Below are positions 86 to 24,102 of a stretch of DNA of 64,000 nucleotides, one piece after another (the stretch's first letter is position 1; the number at the start of each line of letters is the position of its first letter). Origin of the DNA: a virus; IMG/VR virus record IMGVR_UViG_3300027976_000033; one strand, written 5' to 3'. Below the pieces are notes generated by a model. The model saw only the letters and a list, made by a program, of their open reading frames with translations, searched no databases and was not told where the DNA came from. Made by a program: the position numbers and the translations under genes.

Positions 86-718
86 ATGATTATGAACGAA
101 AATCCACTATGGGTGGAAAAATACAGACCAAAGACTATCGAAGATACTATTCTTCCTAGTGATCTCAAGAAAACATTTCAGACATTTGTTGATCAAAAAC
201 AAATTCCTAATTTAATTCTAGCTGGCTCTTCTGGTGTTGGTAAAACAACAGTAGCAAAAGCCATGCTAGAAGAACTTTCTTGTGATTATATTGTGATCAA
301 TGGGTCGATGAAGGGCAATATTGATACTCTGAGAAATGACATTCAACAATTCGCTAGTTCAGTATCTCTATCTGGTGGACGAAAGTATGTTATCCTCGAT
401 GAGGCCGATTATCTAAATTGTCTAGAAGAAAATGAAATGGTAAGACTTTTTGATGGATCTGCAATTAAGTTGAAAGATATGAAAGCCGATACTGAATATA
501 ATGTGGTTTCTTTTAATGTGCACACATTAGAGTTTGAATCTGACATAGCTACCGTTCTAAACCGAACAGAAAAAGAAACTTTCAAAGTCACGTTAGATGA
601 CGGAAGCTGTATCGAAGTGACAGCCGATCATCCGTTTATAGTTAAAGATTGTGATGGTATCATATCCGAAAGGTCTATTAATGACGGGTTAACTGGATAT
701 GAAATTGTATTGAAGTAA
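86..718 (+). CDS. 44: clamp loader large subunit gp44, N-terminal fragment: N-extein (86-418) fused to split-intein N half (419-715)
   Basis: KYRP motif, Walker A GSSGVGKTT and Walker B VILDEAD align with T4 gp44; after DEADYLN the frame continues as a Cys-initiated Hint domain and ends at TAA. Confidence 0.85.
   Translation: MIMNENPLWVEKYRPKTIEDTILPSDLKKTFQTFVDQKQIPNLILAGSSGVGKTTVAKAMLEELSCDYIVINGSMKGNIDTLRNDIQQFASSVSLSGGRKYVILDEADYLNCLEENEMVRLFDGSAIKLKDMKADTEYNVVSFNVHTLEFESDIATVLNRTEKETFKVTLDDGSCIEVTADHPFIVKDCDGIISERSINDGLTGYEIVLK
419..715 (+). other. split intein N-terminal half (IntN, 99 aa) in gene 44
   Basis: starts with Cys directly after the Walker B box; intein block B T-x-x-H (EVTADHPF); terminates at an in-frame stop instead of continuing into the extein. 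Confidence 0.8.
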
Positions 719-739
719 TGAGCTTGGAATTCATGTTTA

Positions 740-747
740 TATAAATA
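740..747 (+). promoter_or_regulatory. T4-type late promoter TATAAATA upstream of the intein-embedded endonuclease gene
   Basis: exact TATAAATA octamer about 60 nt upstream of ATG 806; T4 free-standing HEGs are commonly late-transcribed. Confidence 0.45.
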
Positions 748-805
748 AAGTGTAGGTCGCGGAGTGCAATCTCACCTACTCTAGAAATATAACCGGAGTT
801 CCAGC

Positions 806-1663
806 ATGAATATTTATAAACCATATACGTATTTAATAGGATGGGCTAAACTCGACAAATATTATTATGGTGCTAGATATGCTAAAAACTGTCATCCTAC
901 TGATTTGTGGAATCCATATAAAACATCTTCTCCTATAGTAAAGGAATTCGTAAGAATGTATGGACCCCCAGACATCATATCAATTAGAAAAACCTTCTGT
1001 GATGCTTATAGTGCTATCGATTGGGAACATAAAGTATTAACCAGACTTAAAGTTGGGGCAGGCAATCCTAAATTTTTAAACGCGCATAATGCTAAAGGAT
1101 TTATGCCCTATACTAGTGAAAATAATCCAATGTGCTTTCCTGCGGTAAAGATGAAAATGATTAAAACTAAAAGGGTTAAGGGTCTAATACTTTTATTAAA
1201 GAATAAAAATACATTTGTTCCGAGTAAAAACAAGGTTTTAAACCAACGATTAAAAAATTATTTACAAATAATAGAAGATAGACCTCGTCCTTATAAGATC
1301 ATAAAACAAGTTTTAGAAAAAATGTTAAATGATTGTGATAATTTTAAAAAAAGAAGTTATCCACAAGAAAGAAAGAGTAGTCCCCGCGGCAAGATGCCTA
1401 ACATTGGTATAGCCAAACTTTGTACAAAGTGGTATCATGATCCAGTCGATCTAAAAACCAGACCATTTATACCAGGCTCCGAACCTCAAGGTTGGGTATT
1501 AGGTATGATAAAATTGACACCGAATAATAATACAGATTCATCTAAAAAGAAACTATCTATATCGATGAAGCAATATCGTGCCAGCGAATCTGATGAAAAA
1601 AAACAACAAAGGATGACAAAATATCATGAAACAATTGAAAAGCGCAAAAGTGTTAAGTATTGA
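806..1663 (+). CDS. free-standing GIY-YIG-type homing endonuclease inserted between the split-intein halves of gene 44
   Basis: N-terminal YTYLIGW-x7-KYYYGAR-x-AKNCH then WEHKVL...N matches GIY-x10-YIG, R, H, E, N of Seg/I-TevI-like enzymes; basic C-terminal DNA-binding tail; 3' end overlaps start of the downstream gp44 fragment. Confidence 0.65.
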   Translation: MNIYKPYTYLIGWAKLDKYYYGARYAKNCHPTDLWNPYKTSSPIVKEFVRMYGPPDIISIRKTFCDAYSAIDWEHKVLTRLKVGAGNPKFLNAHNAKGFMPYTSENNPMCFPAVKMKMIKTKRVKGLILLLKNKNTFVPSKNKVLNQRLKNYLQIIEDRPRPYKIIKQVLEKMLNDCDNFKKRSYPQERKSSPRGKMPNIGIAKLCTKWYHDPVDLKTRPFIPGSEPQGWVLGMIKLTPNNNTDSSKKKLSISMKQYRASESDEKKQQRMTKYHETIEKRKSVKY

Positions 1664-1748
1664 ATCGACGGGAATTAAAAGCGTAGTCGATCTTACTGTT
1701 TACAAAAACCACACCTTTGTTACTGGCAATAACATTGTAGTACACAAT
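1626..1748 (+). other. split intein C-terminal half (IntC, 41 aa) in gene 44
   Basis: intein blocks F and G (VDLTV...NNIVVHN) followed by +1 Cys. Confidence 0.8.
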
Positions 1749-2363
1749 TGCAACTCTACACAACCAGCTCTTCGTAATTTCATGGAAGAGTTTTCAAAGA
1801 ATTGTGGATTTATTCTAACTTGCAATTATAAGAATAGAATTATAGCTCCGCTTCAGTCTAGATGTTCTATGATAGATTTCAAAATAAACAAGACAGATAT
1901 TGCACAATTATCTATGCAATTTATGAAACGTGTTTGTGACATATTAGATATCGAGAAAGTTACATATGAAAAGGCTGTAGTAGCTGAAGTTATTAAGAAA
2001 CATTATCCAGATTGGAGACGTGTTCTAAATGATGTACAGAGATACGCTGCCACTGGTGCTATTGATAGTGGAATTCTTGTTAATTTTCAAGAAGCATCAC
2101 TCAAACAACTCATAACACACATGAAAGCTAAGAATTTCACTGAAGTTCGTAAATGGGCTGGTGAAAATGTAGATAATGATGCTGATGTTATATTTAGAAA
2201 AATATATGATCAGGCAGCGGAATTATTGGTACCTTCAGCTGTTCCAGCGGTAGTTTTGACTATTGGGAAGTATCAGTATCAACATGCATTTGCTGCAGAC
2301 TCAGAAATCAATCTAGTGTGTTGTCTGCTTGAGATCATGATTGATTCTGAGTGGAGAACATGA
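1626..2363 (+). CDS. 44: gp44 C-terminal fragment: split-intein C half (1626-1748) plus C-extein (1749-2363)
   Basis: begins MKQLK...VVDLTVYKNHTFVTGNNIVVHN|C; the extein CNSTQPALRNFMEEF...LQSRC aligns with T4 gp44 after its Walker B region (sensor-1 and SRC motif). Confidence 0.85.
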   Translation: MKQLKSAKVLSIESTGIKSVVDLTVYKNHTFVTGNNIVVHNCNSTQPALRNFMEEFSKNCGFILTCNYKNRIIAPLQSRCSMIDFKINKTDIAQLSMQFMKRVCDILDIEKVTYEKAVVAEVIKKHYPDWRRVLNDVQRYAATGAIDSGILVNFQEASLKQLITHMKAKNFTEVRKWAGENVDNDADVIFRKIYDQAAELLVPSAVPAVVLTIGKYQYQHAFAADSEINLVCCLLEIMIDSEWRT

Positions 2364-2602
2364 GCCACTTTATAGTACGAAATGACCAAGGTGATTACAT
2401 GTATCACCGAAGAAATACTGGCCACATGTATGAAGATCGCACCGCATGGGGTGACAACATCTGTGAAGCTAGAGTTTTTACTAAAAAGAGCGCTGCCACA
2501 AATTCTGCAAATCAAGCCACACTTCAACCATATGATAAAAAGCCAAAATTCACTTATGATATAATTAAGGTAGTTTTAATAGAGATAACAGATGAACTGT
2601 GA
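2360..2602 (+). CDS. hypothetical protein
   Basis: ATG overlaps the gp44 stop (ATGA), suggesting translational coupling; 80 aa. Confidence 0.4.
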   Translation: MSHFIVRNDQGDYMYHRRNTGHMYEDRTAWGDNICEARVFTKKSAATNSANQATLQPYDKKPKFTYDIIKVVLIEITDEL

Positions 2603-2768
2603 ATGTTGTGACAATCCTCTTAAGGACGGTGAAGAAGCTATTTTGAAACTTGGCACTGCGGATGGTCCAGTTAAAATGAAAATATGCGCAGATTGTGAGA
2701 GATTCTTAGAAACGGCAATAAGTGCGATGAAGGATATTGACATTGATAATGATAAATTCTCCGAATAG
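2592..2768 (+). CDS. small zinc-ribbon protein (two CxxC pairs)
   Basis: 58-aa ORF MNCECCDNP...ICADCERF; below the ORF-track length cutoff. Confidence 0.35.
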   Translation: MNCECCDNPLKDGEEAILKLGTADGPVKMKICADCERFLETAISAMKDIDIDNDKFSE

Positions 2769-3216
2769 TATTGATGCGGAACATCATGATTATACGGTCT
2801 TCTTAAGTGGTTCTCTATCAATAAACGATACGAGTATCTATTGGAGAAGAAAGCTAATAGCATGTCTTGGTCCTATAGATCACGATGTAGCATTTTTAAA
2901 TCCTCATAGAGACGATTTGATTGAAGATCCAACTTGTCAATACTATATTGAACATATAGAGTGGGTAATGAAATGTCTCAACACAGCTGACCAGATGGTA
3001 TTTTATTTTGATCCTAAAGTTGAAACTCCCGTTTCGATGATGGAACTTGGTGCGATTGCAAGCAATAGAAATGTGATCATATGTTGTCCAGATAAGTTCT
3101 GGAAAAAGACTATAGTGAATGTCATATGTAACGAATTTGATGTTCCCATATTTAAAACTATAGAAGAAACTGCAGGATTTTTAAAGAAAAGAATATTAGA
3201 GGATATTGAATCATGA
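2749..3216 (+). CDS. nucleoside 2-deoxyribosyltransferase-like (Rossmann-like) protein, putative
   Basis: VFLSGS...W...NPH pattern typical of the deoxyribosyltransferase/DUF1937-like fold; first ATG at 2749. Confidence 0.3.
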   Translation: MINSPNSIDAEHHDYTVFLSGSLSINDTSIYWRRKLIACLGPIDHDVAFLNPHRDDLIEDPTCQYYIEHIEWVMKCLNTADQMVFYFDPKVETPVSMMELGAIASNRNVIICCPDKFWKKTIVNVICNEFDVPIFKTIEETAGFLKKRILEDIES

Positions 3217-3322: not shown

Positions 3323-3697
3323 ATGATGAATATGTGGGACCTTCTGAATAGTATTAATCAGAACAAGAAAGATCTTTCTAAAGAAGAAGAATTCGAAAAA
3401 CAATACAACAACTTTATGATCAATCGCGGTCTGAGTTACTTCCCAGACACGATAATGTATTCTAATGAATTGAATCTACTCCCAGACTTAGATAAAGACT
3501 TACAATATCGATATCTAATAAATATTATTAGACCACGAAAGAGGTTTAGTAAATGGGCGAAGAAAAAAGATGACAGTGATTTGCAGTTAGTTATGGAATA
3601 TTTTGACTATAATATTGAGAAAGCAAAATCGGCATTATCTATACTTTCACCATCTGATATGAAAAAAATAAAAGAAAAATTGAACAAGGGTGGATAA
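3323..3697 (+). CDS. 62: clamp loader small subunit gp62
   Basis: FMINRGLSYFPD and YLINIIRPRKRFSKWAKK resemble T4 gp62 FMVENALSQFPE and YLMAAVPRGKRYGKWAKL; located between 44 and regA as in T4. Confidence 0.7.
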   Translation: MMNMWDLLNSINQNKKDLSKEEEFEKQYNNFMINRGLSYFPDTIMYSNELNLLPDLDKDLQYRYLINIIRPRKRFSKWAKKKDDSDLQLVMEYFDYNIEKAKSALSILSPSDMKKIKEKLNKGG

Positions 3698-4106
3698 CAT
3701 GACAAACGATATTTTCAATGGTAAGGGTATAGAAATTCTTATCGAAGAAGATGATGACTTTCTTAAAATAAGAGAAACACTTACACGCATAGGTGTAGCA
3801 TCAAGAAAAGATAAAATTCTCTATCAATCGTGCCATATTTTACATAAGCAAGGTAGATATGCCATTATACATTTTAAAGAGTTATTTGAGCTTGATGGAA
3901 AGACATCGAACTTTTCAGAAGAAGATCGTGGACGTAGAAATACGATTAGCAAATTGCTTGAGGATTGGGGTCTTATTACGATCGTAAATGTAGAGCAATC
4001 AGAAGCTCCTATCGCGCCATTGAGTCAAATTAAAATTCTTCCATATAAAGAAAAAGTAGACTGGGAATTGGTGACCAAATATAATATTGGTTCTCGCAAA
4101 AATTAA
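3690..4106 (+). CDS. regA: translational repressor RegA
   Basis: DDDFLKIRETLTRIGVASRKDKILYQSCHILHKQGRYAIIHFKE and LLEDWGLITIV match T4 RegA almost motif for motif. Confidence 0.9.
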   Translation: MDNMTNDIFNGKGIEILIEEDDDFLKIRETLTRIGVASRKDKILYQSCHILHKQGRYAIIHFKELFELDGKTSNFSEEDRGRRNTISKLLEDWGLITIVNVEQSEAPIAPLSQIKILPYKEKVDWELVTKYNIGSRKN

Positions 4107-21060: not shown

Positions 21061-21690
21061 ATGAGCATTGAAAATATTATATTAAGTAGTTTGTTATATA
21101 ATGAAGATTACGTCAGAAAGACGATAGCATTTTTAAAGCCAGAATATTTTCATAACGATGCTGATAAAGTTCTTTATAAATTAATAGAACACTATTTCCA
21201 GAAGTACAATGCCTCTCCAACAAAGGAAGCATTGCTTCTGGACATAGATAAAGTATCTTTACCGGAACACGTTTTTAAAGAGTGTGTCGAAAAGACCAAG
21301 ACTTTAGAATATACCGAACAACAGATGGTTTGGCTTACAGATACTACAGAGAAATTCTGTCAAGACAAAGCTCTCTACAATGCGATCATGGATTCAATCA
21401 AAATTATCGATGACGATGATGACAAAAATCCATTATCTAAGGGTTCTATTCCACAAATTCTGAGTGACGCTTTAGCAGTATCGTTTGATACTGATATCGG
21501 TCATGATTATTTAGAAAATTCTGAAGAGAGATTCGAGTATTATCATTTAGCTGAAGCGAAAATACCATTCGACATTGAGCATTTTAATAATATCACTAAG
21601 GGTGGTGTTTCTAGAAAAACACTTACAATCATACTTGCTGGTTGTGTTCATCCATCAACAAAAATTAAAGTGCGAATTAGAAAAGTGTAA
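21061..21690 (+). CDS. 41: replicative helicase gp41, fragment 1: N-extein (21061-21642) plus 15-aa split-intein N half
   Basis: DnaB/gp41 N-terminal domain; ends ...KTLTIILAG|CVHPSTKIKVRIRKV* inside the Walker A loop (T4 LLAG-VNVGKS). Confidence 0.85.
   Translation: MSIENIILSSLLYNEDYVRKTIAFLKPEYFHNDADKVLYKLIEHYFQKYNASPTKEALLLDIDKVSLPEHVFKECVEKTKTLEYTEQQMVWLTDTTEKFCQDKALYNAIMDSIKIIDDDDDKNPLSKGSIPQILSDALAVSFDTDIGHDYLENSEERFEYYHLAEAKIPFDIEHFNNITKGGVSRKTLTIILAGCVHPSTKIKVRIRKV
21643..21687 (+). other. atypical split-intein N half (IntN, 15 aa)
   Basis: Cys-initiated 15-residue peptide between the extein and an in-frame stop; complemented by a 128-aa IntC downstream. Confidence 0.65.
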
Positions 21691-22309
21691 ATCCGCGCTG
21701 GTATCCAATATCAATATACGATTGCAACAAATCAGGCTTTATTCTAGTTCTATGTTTTCCATTAGTTACACATATGAAGCCAGTAAGAGCTCTGCCGCCC
21801 TTAGCACAAATAATTTTTTTTACATCTGGATCGAAAAAGGCTCCTATTTTATTTTCTCTTTGTGTTTTAGAGCCAGCAGTTCCACCCTTTGAACACATGT
21901 TTTTTCTAAAGACTGGATCGAAAGTTCCTACTTTATTTTTGGATTGTGTCACCGCCGCCTTTCTGGCGCTAGCTCTGATTGATTCTTTATTATTTTTATA
22001 TTTATCAGAATGAAATCCGATTTTGTTTTTATGACAGAACTTACCAGTGATAATTCGCTGTTTAGTTGAAAGCTTCGCACCCAACATGTGCATAGATCTT
22101 AAATCATTTGGATTTTTATATATTTTCCACAATAAGAAATGAGCAATTATGTGTTCTCTAATATTTAGATATGTTAAATTTTCTTGTAAATCGCCGCCGC
22201 CCATGTGTTTTGGAATTATGTGATGAGCATGTAATCCGCTGGCGTAGCCATATTTTTCTTTTAATGATTTTCTATTTTCACACAATGATGAATAGATTAT
22301 ATCATACAT
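21677..22309 (-). CDS. HNH homing endonuclease (free-standing, opposite strand, between the split-intein halves)
   Basis: GLHAHHIIPKHMGGGD ... NLTYLNIREHIIAH HNH motif. Confidence 0.75.
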   Translation of the reverse strand: MYDIIYSSLCENRKSLKEKYGYASGLHAHHIIPKHMGGGDLQENLTYLNIREHIIAHFLLWKIYKNPNDLRSMHMLGAKLSTKQRIITGKFCHKNKIGFHSDKYKNNKESIRASARKAAVTQSKNKVGTFDPVFRKNMCSKGGTAGSKTQRENKIGAFFDPDVKKIICAKGGRALTGFICVTNGKHRTRIKPDLLQSYIDIGYQRGFTLF

Positions 22310-22323
22310 GTTTTAATCTTTCG

Positions 22324-22331
22324 TATAAATA
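22324..22331 (+). promoter_or_regulatory. T4-type late promoter octamer TATAAATA upstream of gp41 fragment 2
   Basis: exact TATAAATA 46 nt upstream of ATG 22377. Confidence 0.4.
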
Positions 22332-22376
22332 TTATGCCAGTGCCGGCTAGTAATATTTATTATTTTGGAGTTTTTA

Positions 22377-22760
22377 ATGAATAATTGGGTAGAAAAAGAA
22401 ATAGAAATAGGTGCCGTAGATGACTTGCTTAAAGAGGGTTATGAAGTAGAGGTATATTCTCCAGATGGTTGGGTTGGCATTAATTTTTTTGTTGATAAGG
22501 GTTCATATGAAGAATATATCATTACAACCGCAAATGGATTAGAAGTCAAATGTAACGCGGATCATTTATTTAAGTCTGTTGATGATGAATGGATTACTGC
22601 ACAAGAGTTAGAATATATGCAAGATCCTGTAGAATTAGTAACGATACATGGACCATCATTAGCATTTACCATTAAGACAGATAATATAATTCCAATTGTA
22701 GACATAAATGTTAATCATAAAAATAAGCGATATTATACAAATGGTATAGAATCACACAAT
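22377..22760 (+). other. atypical split-intein C half (IntC, 128 aa, contains block B)
   Basis: contains EVKCNADHLF (block B) and terminal GIESHN followed by +1 Thr. Confidence 0.65.
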
Positions 22761-23558
22761 ACTGGCGCGGGCAAAAGTTTGGCAATGTGCCACATGGCAG
22801 CTGGCAATCTCATGGATAATAAGAGTGTCCTATATATCACGCTCGAAATGGCTGAAGAAAAGATCGCAGAAAGAATTGATGCTAATCTTCTAAATATTAC
22901 CATGGACGATTTGGATAAAACTCCAAAAGCCTACTACGATAAAATGATTGCTAAGCTAAAGTCCAGAACTATGGGCAAGCTTATCATTAAAGAATATCCA
23001 ACTTCAACAGCCCATGCAAATCACTTTCGTCATCTTCTTAATGAATTAAAAATTAAGAAGAATTTTATACCAGACATCATCTATATCGATTACATCAATC
23101 TATGCGGATCAGTCAGAATTAAGGCCGGTGCTAATGCTAACTCGTACACGATGATTAAGTCGATTGCCGAAGAACTTCGTGGACTTGCCGTTGAACACAA
23201 CGTTCCTATCATTAGTGCTACACAGGTTACTCGAGCTGGATATGGTTCAAGCGATATTGAAATTACCGATACATCTGAATGTATCTTCCAGGATGAAATG
23301 ATTGAACTGCGTGATGGTAGTTCTAAAATGATTAAAGATATTGTAGTTGGAGATCAAATTATATCTAATGATCAATATAAAACGGTTCATATGGTTCATC
23401 ATTCGAAACTCAAAGACTGTTATAAGATAAAAACATCAGCTGGCAAAGAAATAATTGTAAGCAAAGATCATGTATTTCCAACAAAGCGTGGCAGAATATC
23501 AATCGAAACTGGTTTGAGTGTTGGTGATAATCTTAATAGTAGGAACCGTGATGAGTAA
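22377..23558 (+). CDS. 41: gp41 fragment 2: 128-aa IntC (22377-22760) plus central extein (22761-23279) plus IntN of second split intein (23280-23555)
   Basis: ...NGIESHN|TGAGKSLAMCHMA completes the Walker A motif; DnaB RecA-like core; ends ...DTSE|CIFQDEM...NRDE*. Confidence 0.85.
   Translation: MNNWVEKEIEIGAVDDLLKEGYEVEVYSPDGWVGINFFVDKGSYEEYIITTANGLEVKCNADHLFKSVDDEWITAQELEYMQDPVELVTIHGPSLAFTIKTDNIIPIVDINVNHKNKRYYTNGIESHNTGAGKSLAMCHMAAGNLMDNKSVLYITLEMAEEKIAERIDANLLNITMDDLDKTPKAYYDKMIAKLKSRTMGKLIIKEYPTSTAHANHFRHLLNELKIKKNFIPDIIYIDYINLCGSVRIKAGANANSYTMIKSIAEELRGLAVEHNVPIISATQVTRAGYGSSDIEITDTSECIFQDEMIELRDGSSKMIKDIVVGDQIISNDQYKTVHMVHHSKLKDCYKIKTSAGKEIIVSKDHVFPTKRGRISIETGLSVGDNLNSRNRDE
23280..23555 (+). 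other. split-intein N half (IntN, 92 aa), gp41-1-like
   Basis: CIFQDEMIELRDGS ... KDHVFPT (block B) ... stop; same pattern as described gp41-type split IntN. Confidence 0.8.
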
Positions 23559-23817
23559 TATTTATTTAGCATGCTTAGCTAAAGCAGAGTACTTGATGGA
23601 AAATGGTTATCCAGTTGGTAAGATTGATTTGGCACAATTGACCGATCTTCTTGTTAAATTGGAAAATGAGAAAATAGAAAAGCAAACACTCTCAGATGCT
23701 GTTATAGATTATAATGATACTATTGTCGAAATCATAGAGCTTGGAGAACTGGAAACAGTCGATCTTTCTGTGTCTGGTGATAATCTTTTCTATTGTAATG
23801 ACATATTAACAAAGAAT
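23551..23817 (+). other. split-intein C half (IntC; start uncertain, 89 aa from first ATG)
   Basis: blocks F/G VDLSVSGDNLFYCNDILTKN then +1 Ser. Confidence 0.6.
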
Positions 23818-24102
23818 AGTTTTGGACTTCCCGCCACTGCAGATTTAATGTTTGCTCTAGTTACATCTGAAGAGATGGAAAAATTAAATCAAGTTATGGT
23901 GAAGCAACTTAAAAACAGATATTCAGACATATCAAAGGATAGGAGATTTTTTGTTGGACTAGATAAGAGTAGAATGAAATTTTATGATCTAGAAGATAGT
24001 GCACAACGAGTTTTAAATGACGATGTTGCTATAATGGATCAAACGCCGACTGGTAAAAGAATTAATGATGAACTTAGAGATAAAATGAAAGATTTTAAAT
24101 GA
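23551..24102 (+). CDS. 41: gp41 fragment 3: IntC (23551-23817) plus C-extein (23818-24102)
   Basis: ATG overlaps the fragment-2 stop (ATGAGTAA); ...VDLSVSGDNLFYCNDILTKN|SFGLPATADLMFAL continues T4 gp41 ...SAGLPATADFMLAV. Confidence 0.8.
   Translation: MSNIYLACLAKAEYLMENGYPVGKIDLAQLTDLLVKLENEKIEKQTLSDAVIDYNDTIVEIIELGELETVDLSVSGDNLFYCNDILTKNSFGLPATADLMFALVTSEEMEKLNQVMVKQLKNRYSDISKDRRFFVGLDKSRMKFYDLEDSAQRVLNDDVAIMDQTPTGKRINDELRDKMKDFK

Follow-up and report, generated by a model that had tools for sequence, protein, structure and literature searches.

A predicted split intein with a SegE-like endonuclease gene interrupts clamp-loader gene 44 of an uncultured T4-like phage

In a 64,000-nucleotide stretch of viral DNA (IMG/VR record IMGVR_UViG_3300027976_000033; the whole stretch is called the window below), the clamp-loader gene 44 is divided between two open reading frames (ORFs) that carry the halves of a predicted split intein and that flank a gene for a GIY-YIG-like homing endonuclease. 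These three + strand ORFs occupy nucleotides 86-2363. From the gene structure, the catalytic residues, homology, conservation and a signature of lateral transfer, we consider it very probable that gene 44 has been invaded by a composite of split intein and endonuclease gene, with trans-splicing of the gp44 pieces, late expression and homing. The parts of the locus are as follows, a slash marking an intein-extein junction here and throughout.

419-1748, + strand: whole composite element (split intein plus endonuclease gene), 1,330 bp, delimited by alignment with the empty-site allele of contig L029
86-418, + strand: gp44 N-extein, residues 1-111, with Walker A (GSSGVGKT) and Walker B (ILDEAD), ending ..YLN
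419-718, + strand: predicted N-intein (IntN), 99 residues from Cys1 (CLEENEMV..), block B TADH, net charge about -11
722-805, + strand: predicted RNA hairpin, 5′ arm 722-735 paired with 3′ arm 793-805, -25.3 kcal/mol
740-747, + strand: TATAAATA, a T4-type late-promoter motif between the hairpin arms, conserved in related loci
806-1663, + strand: putative free-standing homing endonuclease gene, 285 residues, isoelectric point about 10, with a SegE-like GIY-YIG domain in the N-terminal ~100 residues
1626-1748, + strand: predicted C-intein (IntC), 41 residues (MKQLKSAKVLSIESTGIKSVVDLTVYKNHTFVTGNNIVVHN), net charge about +3, its first 38 nucleotides overlapping the end of the endonuclease gene
1749-2363, + strand: gp44 C-extein, 204 residues from Cys+1 (CNSTQPALRNFMEEF..), with the SRC motif and the lid and collar domains

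The first ORF (86-718; 210 residues) contains a KYRP box, GSSGVGKT and ILDEAD and then, from Cys112 at nucleotide 419, the N half of the intein; it is closed by TAA at 716-718 and an in-frame TGA at 719-721. The third ORF (1626-2363; 245 residues) has its own ATG and encodes the 41-residue C-intein, Cys+1 at nucleotide 1749, and 203 further gp44 residues, among them the SRC arginine-finger motif (LQSRC). Both extein segments matched the clamp-loader family PHROG 168, the first ORF covering profile positions 4-121 with an expectation value (E) of 7.5e-44 and the third covering positions 115-313 with E 6e-66, and Pfam placed an AAA domain in the former and Gp44_lid (E 2e-12) in the latter. When joined, the exteins comprised a 315-residue, 35.7-kDa protein with all of the features of T4-type gp44 (Walker A, Walker B, SRC and lid), collinear with T4 gp44 over residues 8-314 and without a gap at the junction (PDB 8unf_E/3u5z_B, E 1.5e-50). 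An initial annotation of this DNA had described a gp44 frame running through both Walker motifs into an intein N half at the cysteine at nucleotide 419 and stopping at 716-718, followed by a downstream ORF with an intein C half, a +1 cysteine and the rest of gp44. Its coordinates for the first ORF were exact, the downstream ORF is the one at 1626-2363, the alignment to T4 gp44 that it proposed joined the pieces cleanly, and its estimate of about 36 kDa for the spliced product agrees with the computed mass.

By its sequence motifs, the protein segment between the exteins is a naturally split class-1 intein (HINT domain) that would be expected to splice. The block A nucleophile (Cys112) and block B residues Thr179-Ala-Asp-His182 are present; across 22 aligned sequences, Cys112 is kept in at least 90% and His182 is invariant, and Thr179 is also conserved across the family. 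Blocks F and G read VVDLTVYKNHTFV...VVHN/C in the window, the C-intein ending in ..VVDLTVYKNHTFVTGNNIVVHN with the terminal VVHN directly before Cys+1, and both NH.F and HN/C are kept in 9/9 loci compared. In the profile search of the intein halves that had been suggested earlier, Pfam Intein_splicing matched through its N-terminal positions 5-82 in the first ORF (E 1.6e-7) and through its C-terminal positions 121-155 in the third (E 2.6e-3). The joined halves (140 residues) gave phmmer matches in the PDB that span both halves, to DnaE (2.7e-7), DnaB (4.5e-7) and gp41-1 (6.9e-7). The split falls between blocks B and F, the canonical position for endonuclease insertion in a class-1 intein, with all catalytic residues present, and the two halves are oppositely charged.

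The ends of the element were fixed by an intein-less allele. Contig L029, from the same sample series as the window, has an identical gene order and an uninterrupted gene 44, and filled and empty alleles were thus found together. The two DNAs are 93.9% identical in the N-extein and 90.8% identical in the C-extein, and their alignment places the insertion point at ..CTAAAT/GCAAACTCC.. in the window; the empty site, at nucleotides ~4280-4380 of L029, reads ..GATTATCTAAAT/GCAAACTCCACACAACCAGCT... At the junction, the empty allele has GCA (Ala) where the window has TGC (Cys). Contig L032, from another sample, matches the window throughout a stretch of 4,200 nucleotides save for 10 clustered mismatches. 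All 10 fall within 96 nucleotides of the N-extein (131-226 in the window), where the L032 protein agrees with the intein-less allele P0017, a pattern suggesting that co-occurring alleles recombined over a short tract.

Relatives of the locus proved to be numerous. In a space of 5.8 billion protein sequences, ~17 clusters (208-217 residues, plus one partial) were 54-99% identical to the gp44N-IntN protein of the window; all are fusions of the same kind with the same end point, and DYLN/C is essentially invariant. The three-gene layout with an orthologous middle gene recurs in more than 10 independent contigs from IMG/VR, JGI, ENA and Logan (L002-L004, L006, L007, L032 and L035-L039), and none of the best 120 database matches was a gp44 containing a contiguous intein. 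Locus L034 (4001-5544) has a split intein at the same site, separated by a 179-nucleotide spacer and lacking an endonuclease gene; therefore, the split state either outlasts loss of the endonuclease gene or predates its gain. A second gp44 site lies five residues upstream, inside Walker B (ILDE/C), where Cys+1 substitutes for the Ala of DEAD. It is filled by a related split intein in L030 (280-1815), with just a 51-residue ORF between the halves, and in L001 (3983-6728; LR756500.1, a 462-kb uncultured phage), with a 443-residue middle ORF that lacks a Pfam match. Split inteins of the family are ~50-99% identical to each other. On balance, we lean toward the view that these loci represent an undescribed family of split inteins in phage clamp loaders, with two sites by Walker B and present-day movement, as one unit with a divergent SegE-like GIY-YIG endonuclease, among diverged aquatic T4-like phages.

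Selection and mobility were assessed in two unsaturated pairs of loci, L035 vs L037 and L004 vs L038. First, IntN had ratios of nonsynonymous to synonymous substitution (dN/dS) of 0.10-0.19, the endonuclease had ratios of 0.10-0.21, and IntC had a ratio of 0.24; because all lie in the range 0.10-0.24, selection maintains the three parts. Second, nucleotide identity between L035 and L037 is ~95% from the first to the last intein codon vs ~75% in the exteins and neighboring genes, and identity between L004 and L038 is ~87% within the element vs 60-70% in the exteins. Third, the identity step in both pairs falls at the intein ends, the same boundaries as 419-1748 in the window. By these comparisons, the element in both pairs is of much more recent origin than the gene that carries it. 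As it is more alike between phages than the flanking gp44 is, with a step at the intein ends, the identity profile indicates that the composite was transferred laterally as a unit into diverged phage genomes, the signature expected of homing.

The middle protein was harder to classify. By tblastn, the comparison with Seg-like endonucleases that had been proposed for this ORF, its N-terminal ~100 residues resemble phage proteins whose annotation reads SEG-like or GIY-YIG homing endonuclease. Of 48 homologs, 18 matched the Pfam family SegE_GIY-YIG (PF19835) and 19 matched NUMOD3. When 10 proteins were scanned individually (8 of them from the SegE-matching set), only P0170 exceeded the SegE_GIY-YIG cut-off (43.2 bits), and the window endonuclease matched P0170 with E 1.4e-5 in the 5.8-billion-sequence database. 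Tyr7, Tyr9, Tyr20-Tyr21-Gly22, Glu74 and Asn92 are invariant in the 48 homologs and Arg24 is kept in at least 90%; as judged from sequence pattern rather than residue-level structure, the invariant residues fit the GIY-YIG pattern. The numbering of Glu74 and Asn92 is near that of Glu75 and Asn90 in I-TevI. A fold search also supported a GIY-YIG alpha/beta fold. Because direct profile matches failed, the assignment rests on this fold search and on transitive homology, and we accept the middle gene as encoding a divergent SegE-like GIY-YIG endonuclease with predicted activity. The earlier reading of ORF 806-1663 as GIY-YIG-like is thus borne out through fold and remote homology, with no direct Pfam GIY-YIG match.

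A late promoter had been proposed at 740, ahead of the endonuclease gene, and comparison supports it. In 9/9 same-site, endonuclease-bearing loci examined, TATAAATA occurs 10-58 nucleotides upstream of the endonuclease start, and all nine loci have a predicted hairpin (z-scores -1.7 to -7.2) with the motif between its arms, the 5′ arm upstream of the promoter and the 3′ arm over the Shine-Dalgarno/start region. In the window, the 3′ arm contains the endonuclease Shine-Dalgarno sequence GGAG (795-798). The arm sequences vary by lineage with pairing retained, as covarying arms. Within the window, the nine + strand copies of the motif are all intergenic or at the very 3′ terminus of an ORF, on a strand that is 80% coding. 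A scan for sigma-70 promoters and terminators found no more than expected from shuffled sequence, and we therefore claim no internal promoter for the C-terminal fragment.

Several observations weigh against this interpretation of the locus. TATAAATA is present in the window at a chance level (10 copies vs 9.3 expected); we accordingly rejected window-wide enrichment as evidence and relied on position and comparison, and the motif is regarded as significant because it is conserved in related loci. The z-score of the window hairpin is a modest -2.1. Taken singly, the intein halves score below the Pfam gathering threshold (31.7 and 18 bits vs 35.8). Pfam gave no GIY-YIG match to the window endonuclease at E<=1 and no nuclease family for six orthologous endonucleases from related loci, a Foldseek match to I-TevI (E 0.31) is not significant alone, a profile of the 48 homologs found no relevant solved structure among PDB sequences, and hhalign of the same profile against a sequence that we take to approximate the I-TevI catalytic domain aligned 7 residues only. 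Both trans-splicing and endonuclease activity are predictions from these sequences. Finally, with 64 kb of the genome visible, a second intact gene 44 could lie elsewhere.

Four other accounts of the locus can be set against the same data. That the gp44 pieces form a non-covalent complex, in which the intein halves dock without splicing, has a published precedent in the mobE-split NrdA of phage Aeh1, whose fragments come together without ligation (PMC2677866; PMC3045599). We consider such an arrangement unlikely for gp44: Cys1, TxxH, the terminal HN and Cys+1 have changed little or not at all in lineages whose inteins are only ~50% identical, dN/dS is ~0.1-0.2 on the intein halves, and the break lies four residues past Walker B in the AAA+ core, where the ATP site would probably suffer if a 140-residue HINT domain stayed in place. 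Less likely again is a decaying gene, inactivated by the insertion and with its function supplied from a copy outside the 64 kb seen. Decay predicts frameshifts, stop codons or dN/dS near 1 across relatives, and the opposite was observed: more than 10 independent contigs carry undamaged exteins, intein halves and endonuclease, all evolving under purifying selection. Downstream, the locus has kept gp62 and regA, and no second gp44-like or intein-like copy of the family was found in the 64-kb window. We give still less credence to removal of the endonuclease gene at the RNA level, as part of a self-splicing intron, whose excision would leave an mRNA for an unbroken gp44 with its intein. Introns often encode the homing endonucleases of phages, and cases in which intron and intein coincide have been described (PMC3322345), but nucleotides 1-2700 matched no Rfam family, including group I and group II introns, at E<=1, the endonuclease-less L034 and L030 loci are still two ORFs with short spacers, and the C-terminal fragment retains a conserved Met-Lys start. 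A false stop codon or chimeric contig, conceivable in what is probably a metagenomic assembly, is ruled out for practical purposes because independent assemblies show the same arrangement, both the near-identical L032 from another sample and diverged contigs from ENA, JGI, Logan and IMG/VR.

The trans-spliced composite that we favor would operate as follows. A selfish element would have inserted into gene 44 of an uncultured T4-like phage, the coding sequence of its class-1 intein being broken, where an endonuclease usually sits, by a free-standing SegE-like GIY-YIG gene that has separate stop and start signals. Gene 44 would then be expressed as a 23.5-kDa gp44(1-111)-IntN protein and a 27.9-kDa IntC-gp44(112-315) protein. 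The acidic IntN and basic IntC would associate, form a complete HINT domain and trans-splice, yielding a 35.7-kDa gp44 that should differ from intein-less alleles only by Cys in place of Ala/Pro at DEADYLN/C. On early and middle read-through transcripts, the hairpin would bury the ribosome-binding site of the endonuclease gene and keep it silent; translation would occur only from late transcripts that start at TATAAATA inside the hairpin, on the model of I-TevI, segB and mobE. The endonuclease would then be expected to cut intein-less gene 44 near the insertion site in co-infecting phages, with repair copying the 1.33-kb element, and the inserted element would shield its own genome by disrupting the target site.

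This layout fits the fractured genes described by Dassa et al. 2009 (PMC2677866), as the initial annotation had recognized. Those were reported for gp41, IMPDH, DnaE, NrdA, NrdJ, DNA ligase and terminase, under names that include gp41-1, gp41-8, NrdJ-1, NrdA-2 and IMPDH-1, with GIY-YIG or Vsr-like endonucleases (PMC2677866). In both cases, a phage gene of DNA metabolism is present as two adjacent same-strand ORFs, one bearing the N half and the other the C half of a split intein. Between them is a free-standing endonuclease gene of the GIY-YIG or Vsr-like type, which overlaps the ORF for the C-terminal fragment and has a T4 late-promoter motif and a hairpin in its 5′ untranslated region. The intein halves are oppositely charged, and both sets include variants that lack the endonuclease gene, namely gp41-7 among the published cases and L034 and L030 for gp44. 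The differences are that the host gene is gp44 and the intein only distantly related (E 7e-7 to the gp41-1 intein), that two adjacent sites are occupied (DEADYLN/C and DE/C), and that the endonuclease represents a divergent subgroup of SegE-like proteins missed by standard Pfam GIY-YIG models. Clamp loaders, including gp44, are absent from the eight enzyme types in PMC2677866. The further claim that this architecture had not been described for gene 44 stands provisionally: the literature searched, in which subscription journals are thinly covered, held no description of a split intein in gp44 or in any clamp loader.

Cellular clamp-loader ATPases also carry inteins in their AAA+ module. Cyanobacterial DnaX has one directly after Walker B and archaeal RFC-S has inteins at four sites, all contiguous (Novikova et al. 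2016, PMC4760082). The DnaX (PolIII gamma/tau) intein resembles that of gp44 in its Walker B neighborhood, a comparison made by neighborhood and not residue by residue, and the Spl DnaX mini-intein is a weak match to the joined gp44 intein (E 9.5e-4). These DnaX and RFC-S inteins are contiguous, cis-splicing and cellular, whereas the gp44 intein is split, phage-borne and accompanied by a free-standing endonuclease gene. The control region also has precedents. In I-TevI, segB and mobE, read-through transcription hides the ribosome-binding site in a hairpin and late transcripts start inside the hairpin (PMC2988022). In Aeh1 nrdA/mobE and in gene 43 of Aeromonas phage 25, with its GIY-YIG seg gene, an endonuclease gene under a late promoter and hairpin likewise splits a gene essential for replication into two ORFs (PMC2988022); there the fragments assemble without an intein, whereas those of gp44 are predicted to be covalently ligated. 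Compared with T4 SegE and I-TevI, the window endonuclease has an unusual motif (YTYLIGW...YYYGARY), no direct Pfam match and no recognizable NUMOD.

Downstream of the fractured gene, the T4-like order 44-62-regA is complete in the window, and gp45 was seen upstream in the near-identical contig L032.

3323-3697, + strand: gp62, the clamp-loader small subunit and partner of gp44 (Pfam Phage_clamp_A, E 4e-14)
3690-4106, + strand: RegA translational repressor (Pfam Translat_reg, E 1.7e-43)

Between genes 44 and 62, where T4 has none, three small ORFs occupy 2351-3216; that at 2737-3216 encodes a nucleoside 2-deoxyribosyltransferase-like protein (Pfam Nuc_deoxyri_tr2, E 3e-19), present in two copies in the relative L029. 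As nucleotides 1-2600 had no megablast match among 50,697 phage records, the phage appears to lack a close cultured relative.

A gp41-like replicative helicase in the same window is also broken, being encoded in three pieces (Pfam DnaB, DnaB_C and Intein_splicing). ORF 21061-21690 ends ..LTIILAG/CVHPSTKIKVRIRKV before its stop codon, CVHPSTKIKVRIRKV being an apparent N-intein of just 15 residues inserted in the helicase P-loop. After this first piece comes an HNH endonuclease ORF on the opposite strand (21677-22309), and ORF 22365-23558 then opens with a long intein C-part (22365-22760; ..KCNADHLF...GIESHN/TGAGKS). The arrangement at the P-loop resembles an intein split in an atypical manner, with an HNH gene in antisense orientation, and a copy of TATAAATA lies at 22324. 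ORF 22365-23558 ends in the first half of a second putative split intein (23268-24102), ..ITDTSE/CIFQDEMIELRDG...SKDHVF.. and a stop codon, and the overlapping ORF 23518-24102 holds ..ETVDLSVSGDNLFYCNDILTKN/SFGLPATADL.... This second intein resembles the gp41-1 split intein, has no endonuclease gene between its halves, and ends in Lys-Asn, not His-Asn.

The architecture has been known since 2009, and gp44 adds no new principle; it is a new host gene for that architecture, by which the clamp loader joins the phage replication proteins presumed from sequence to be rebuilt by trans-splicing. With gp44 and the gp41 helicase both interrupted in one window, a single phage can apparently rely on several split inteins for its replisome. 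The endonuclease-bearing, endonuclease-less and empty-site alleles at two sites form a natural series for studying the origin, spread and decay of intein-endonuclease composites. If our interpretation is correct, the family would provide new orthogonal Cys1/Cys+1 split inteins for protein engineering and could widen the orthogonal toolbox of gp41-1, NrdJ-1 and IMPDH-1. For the phage itself, trans-splicing would be needed to form an active clamp loader and thereby for processive replication, and this step could serve as a post-translational checkpoint.

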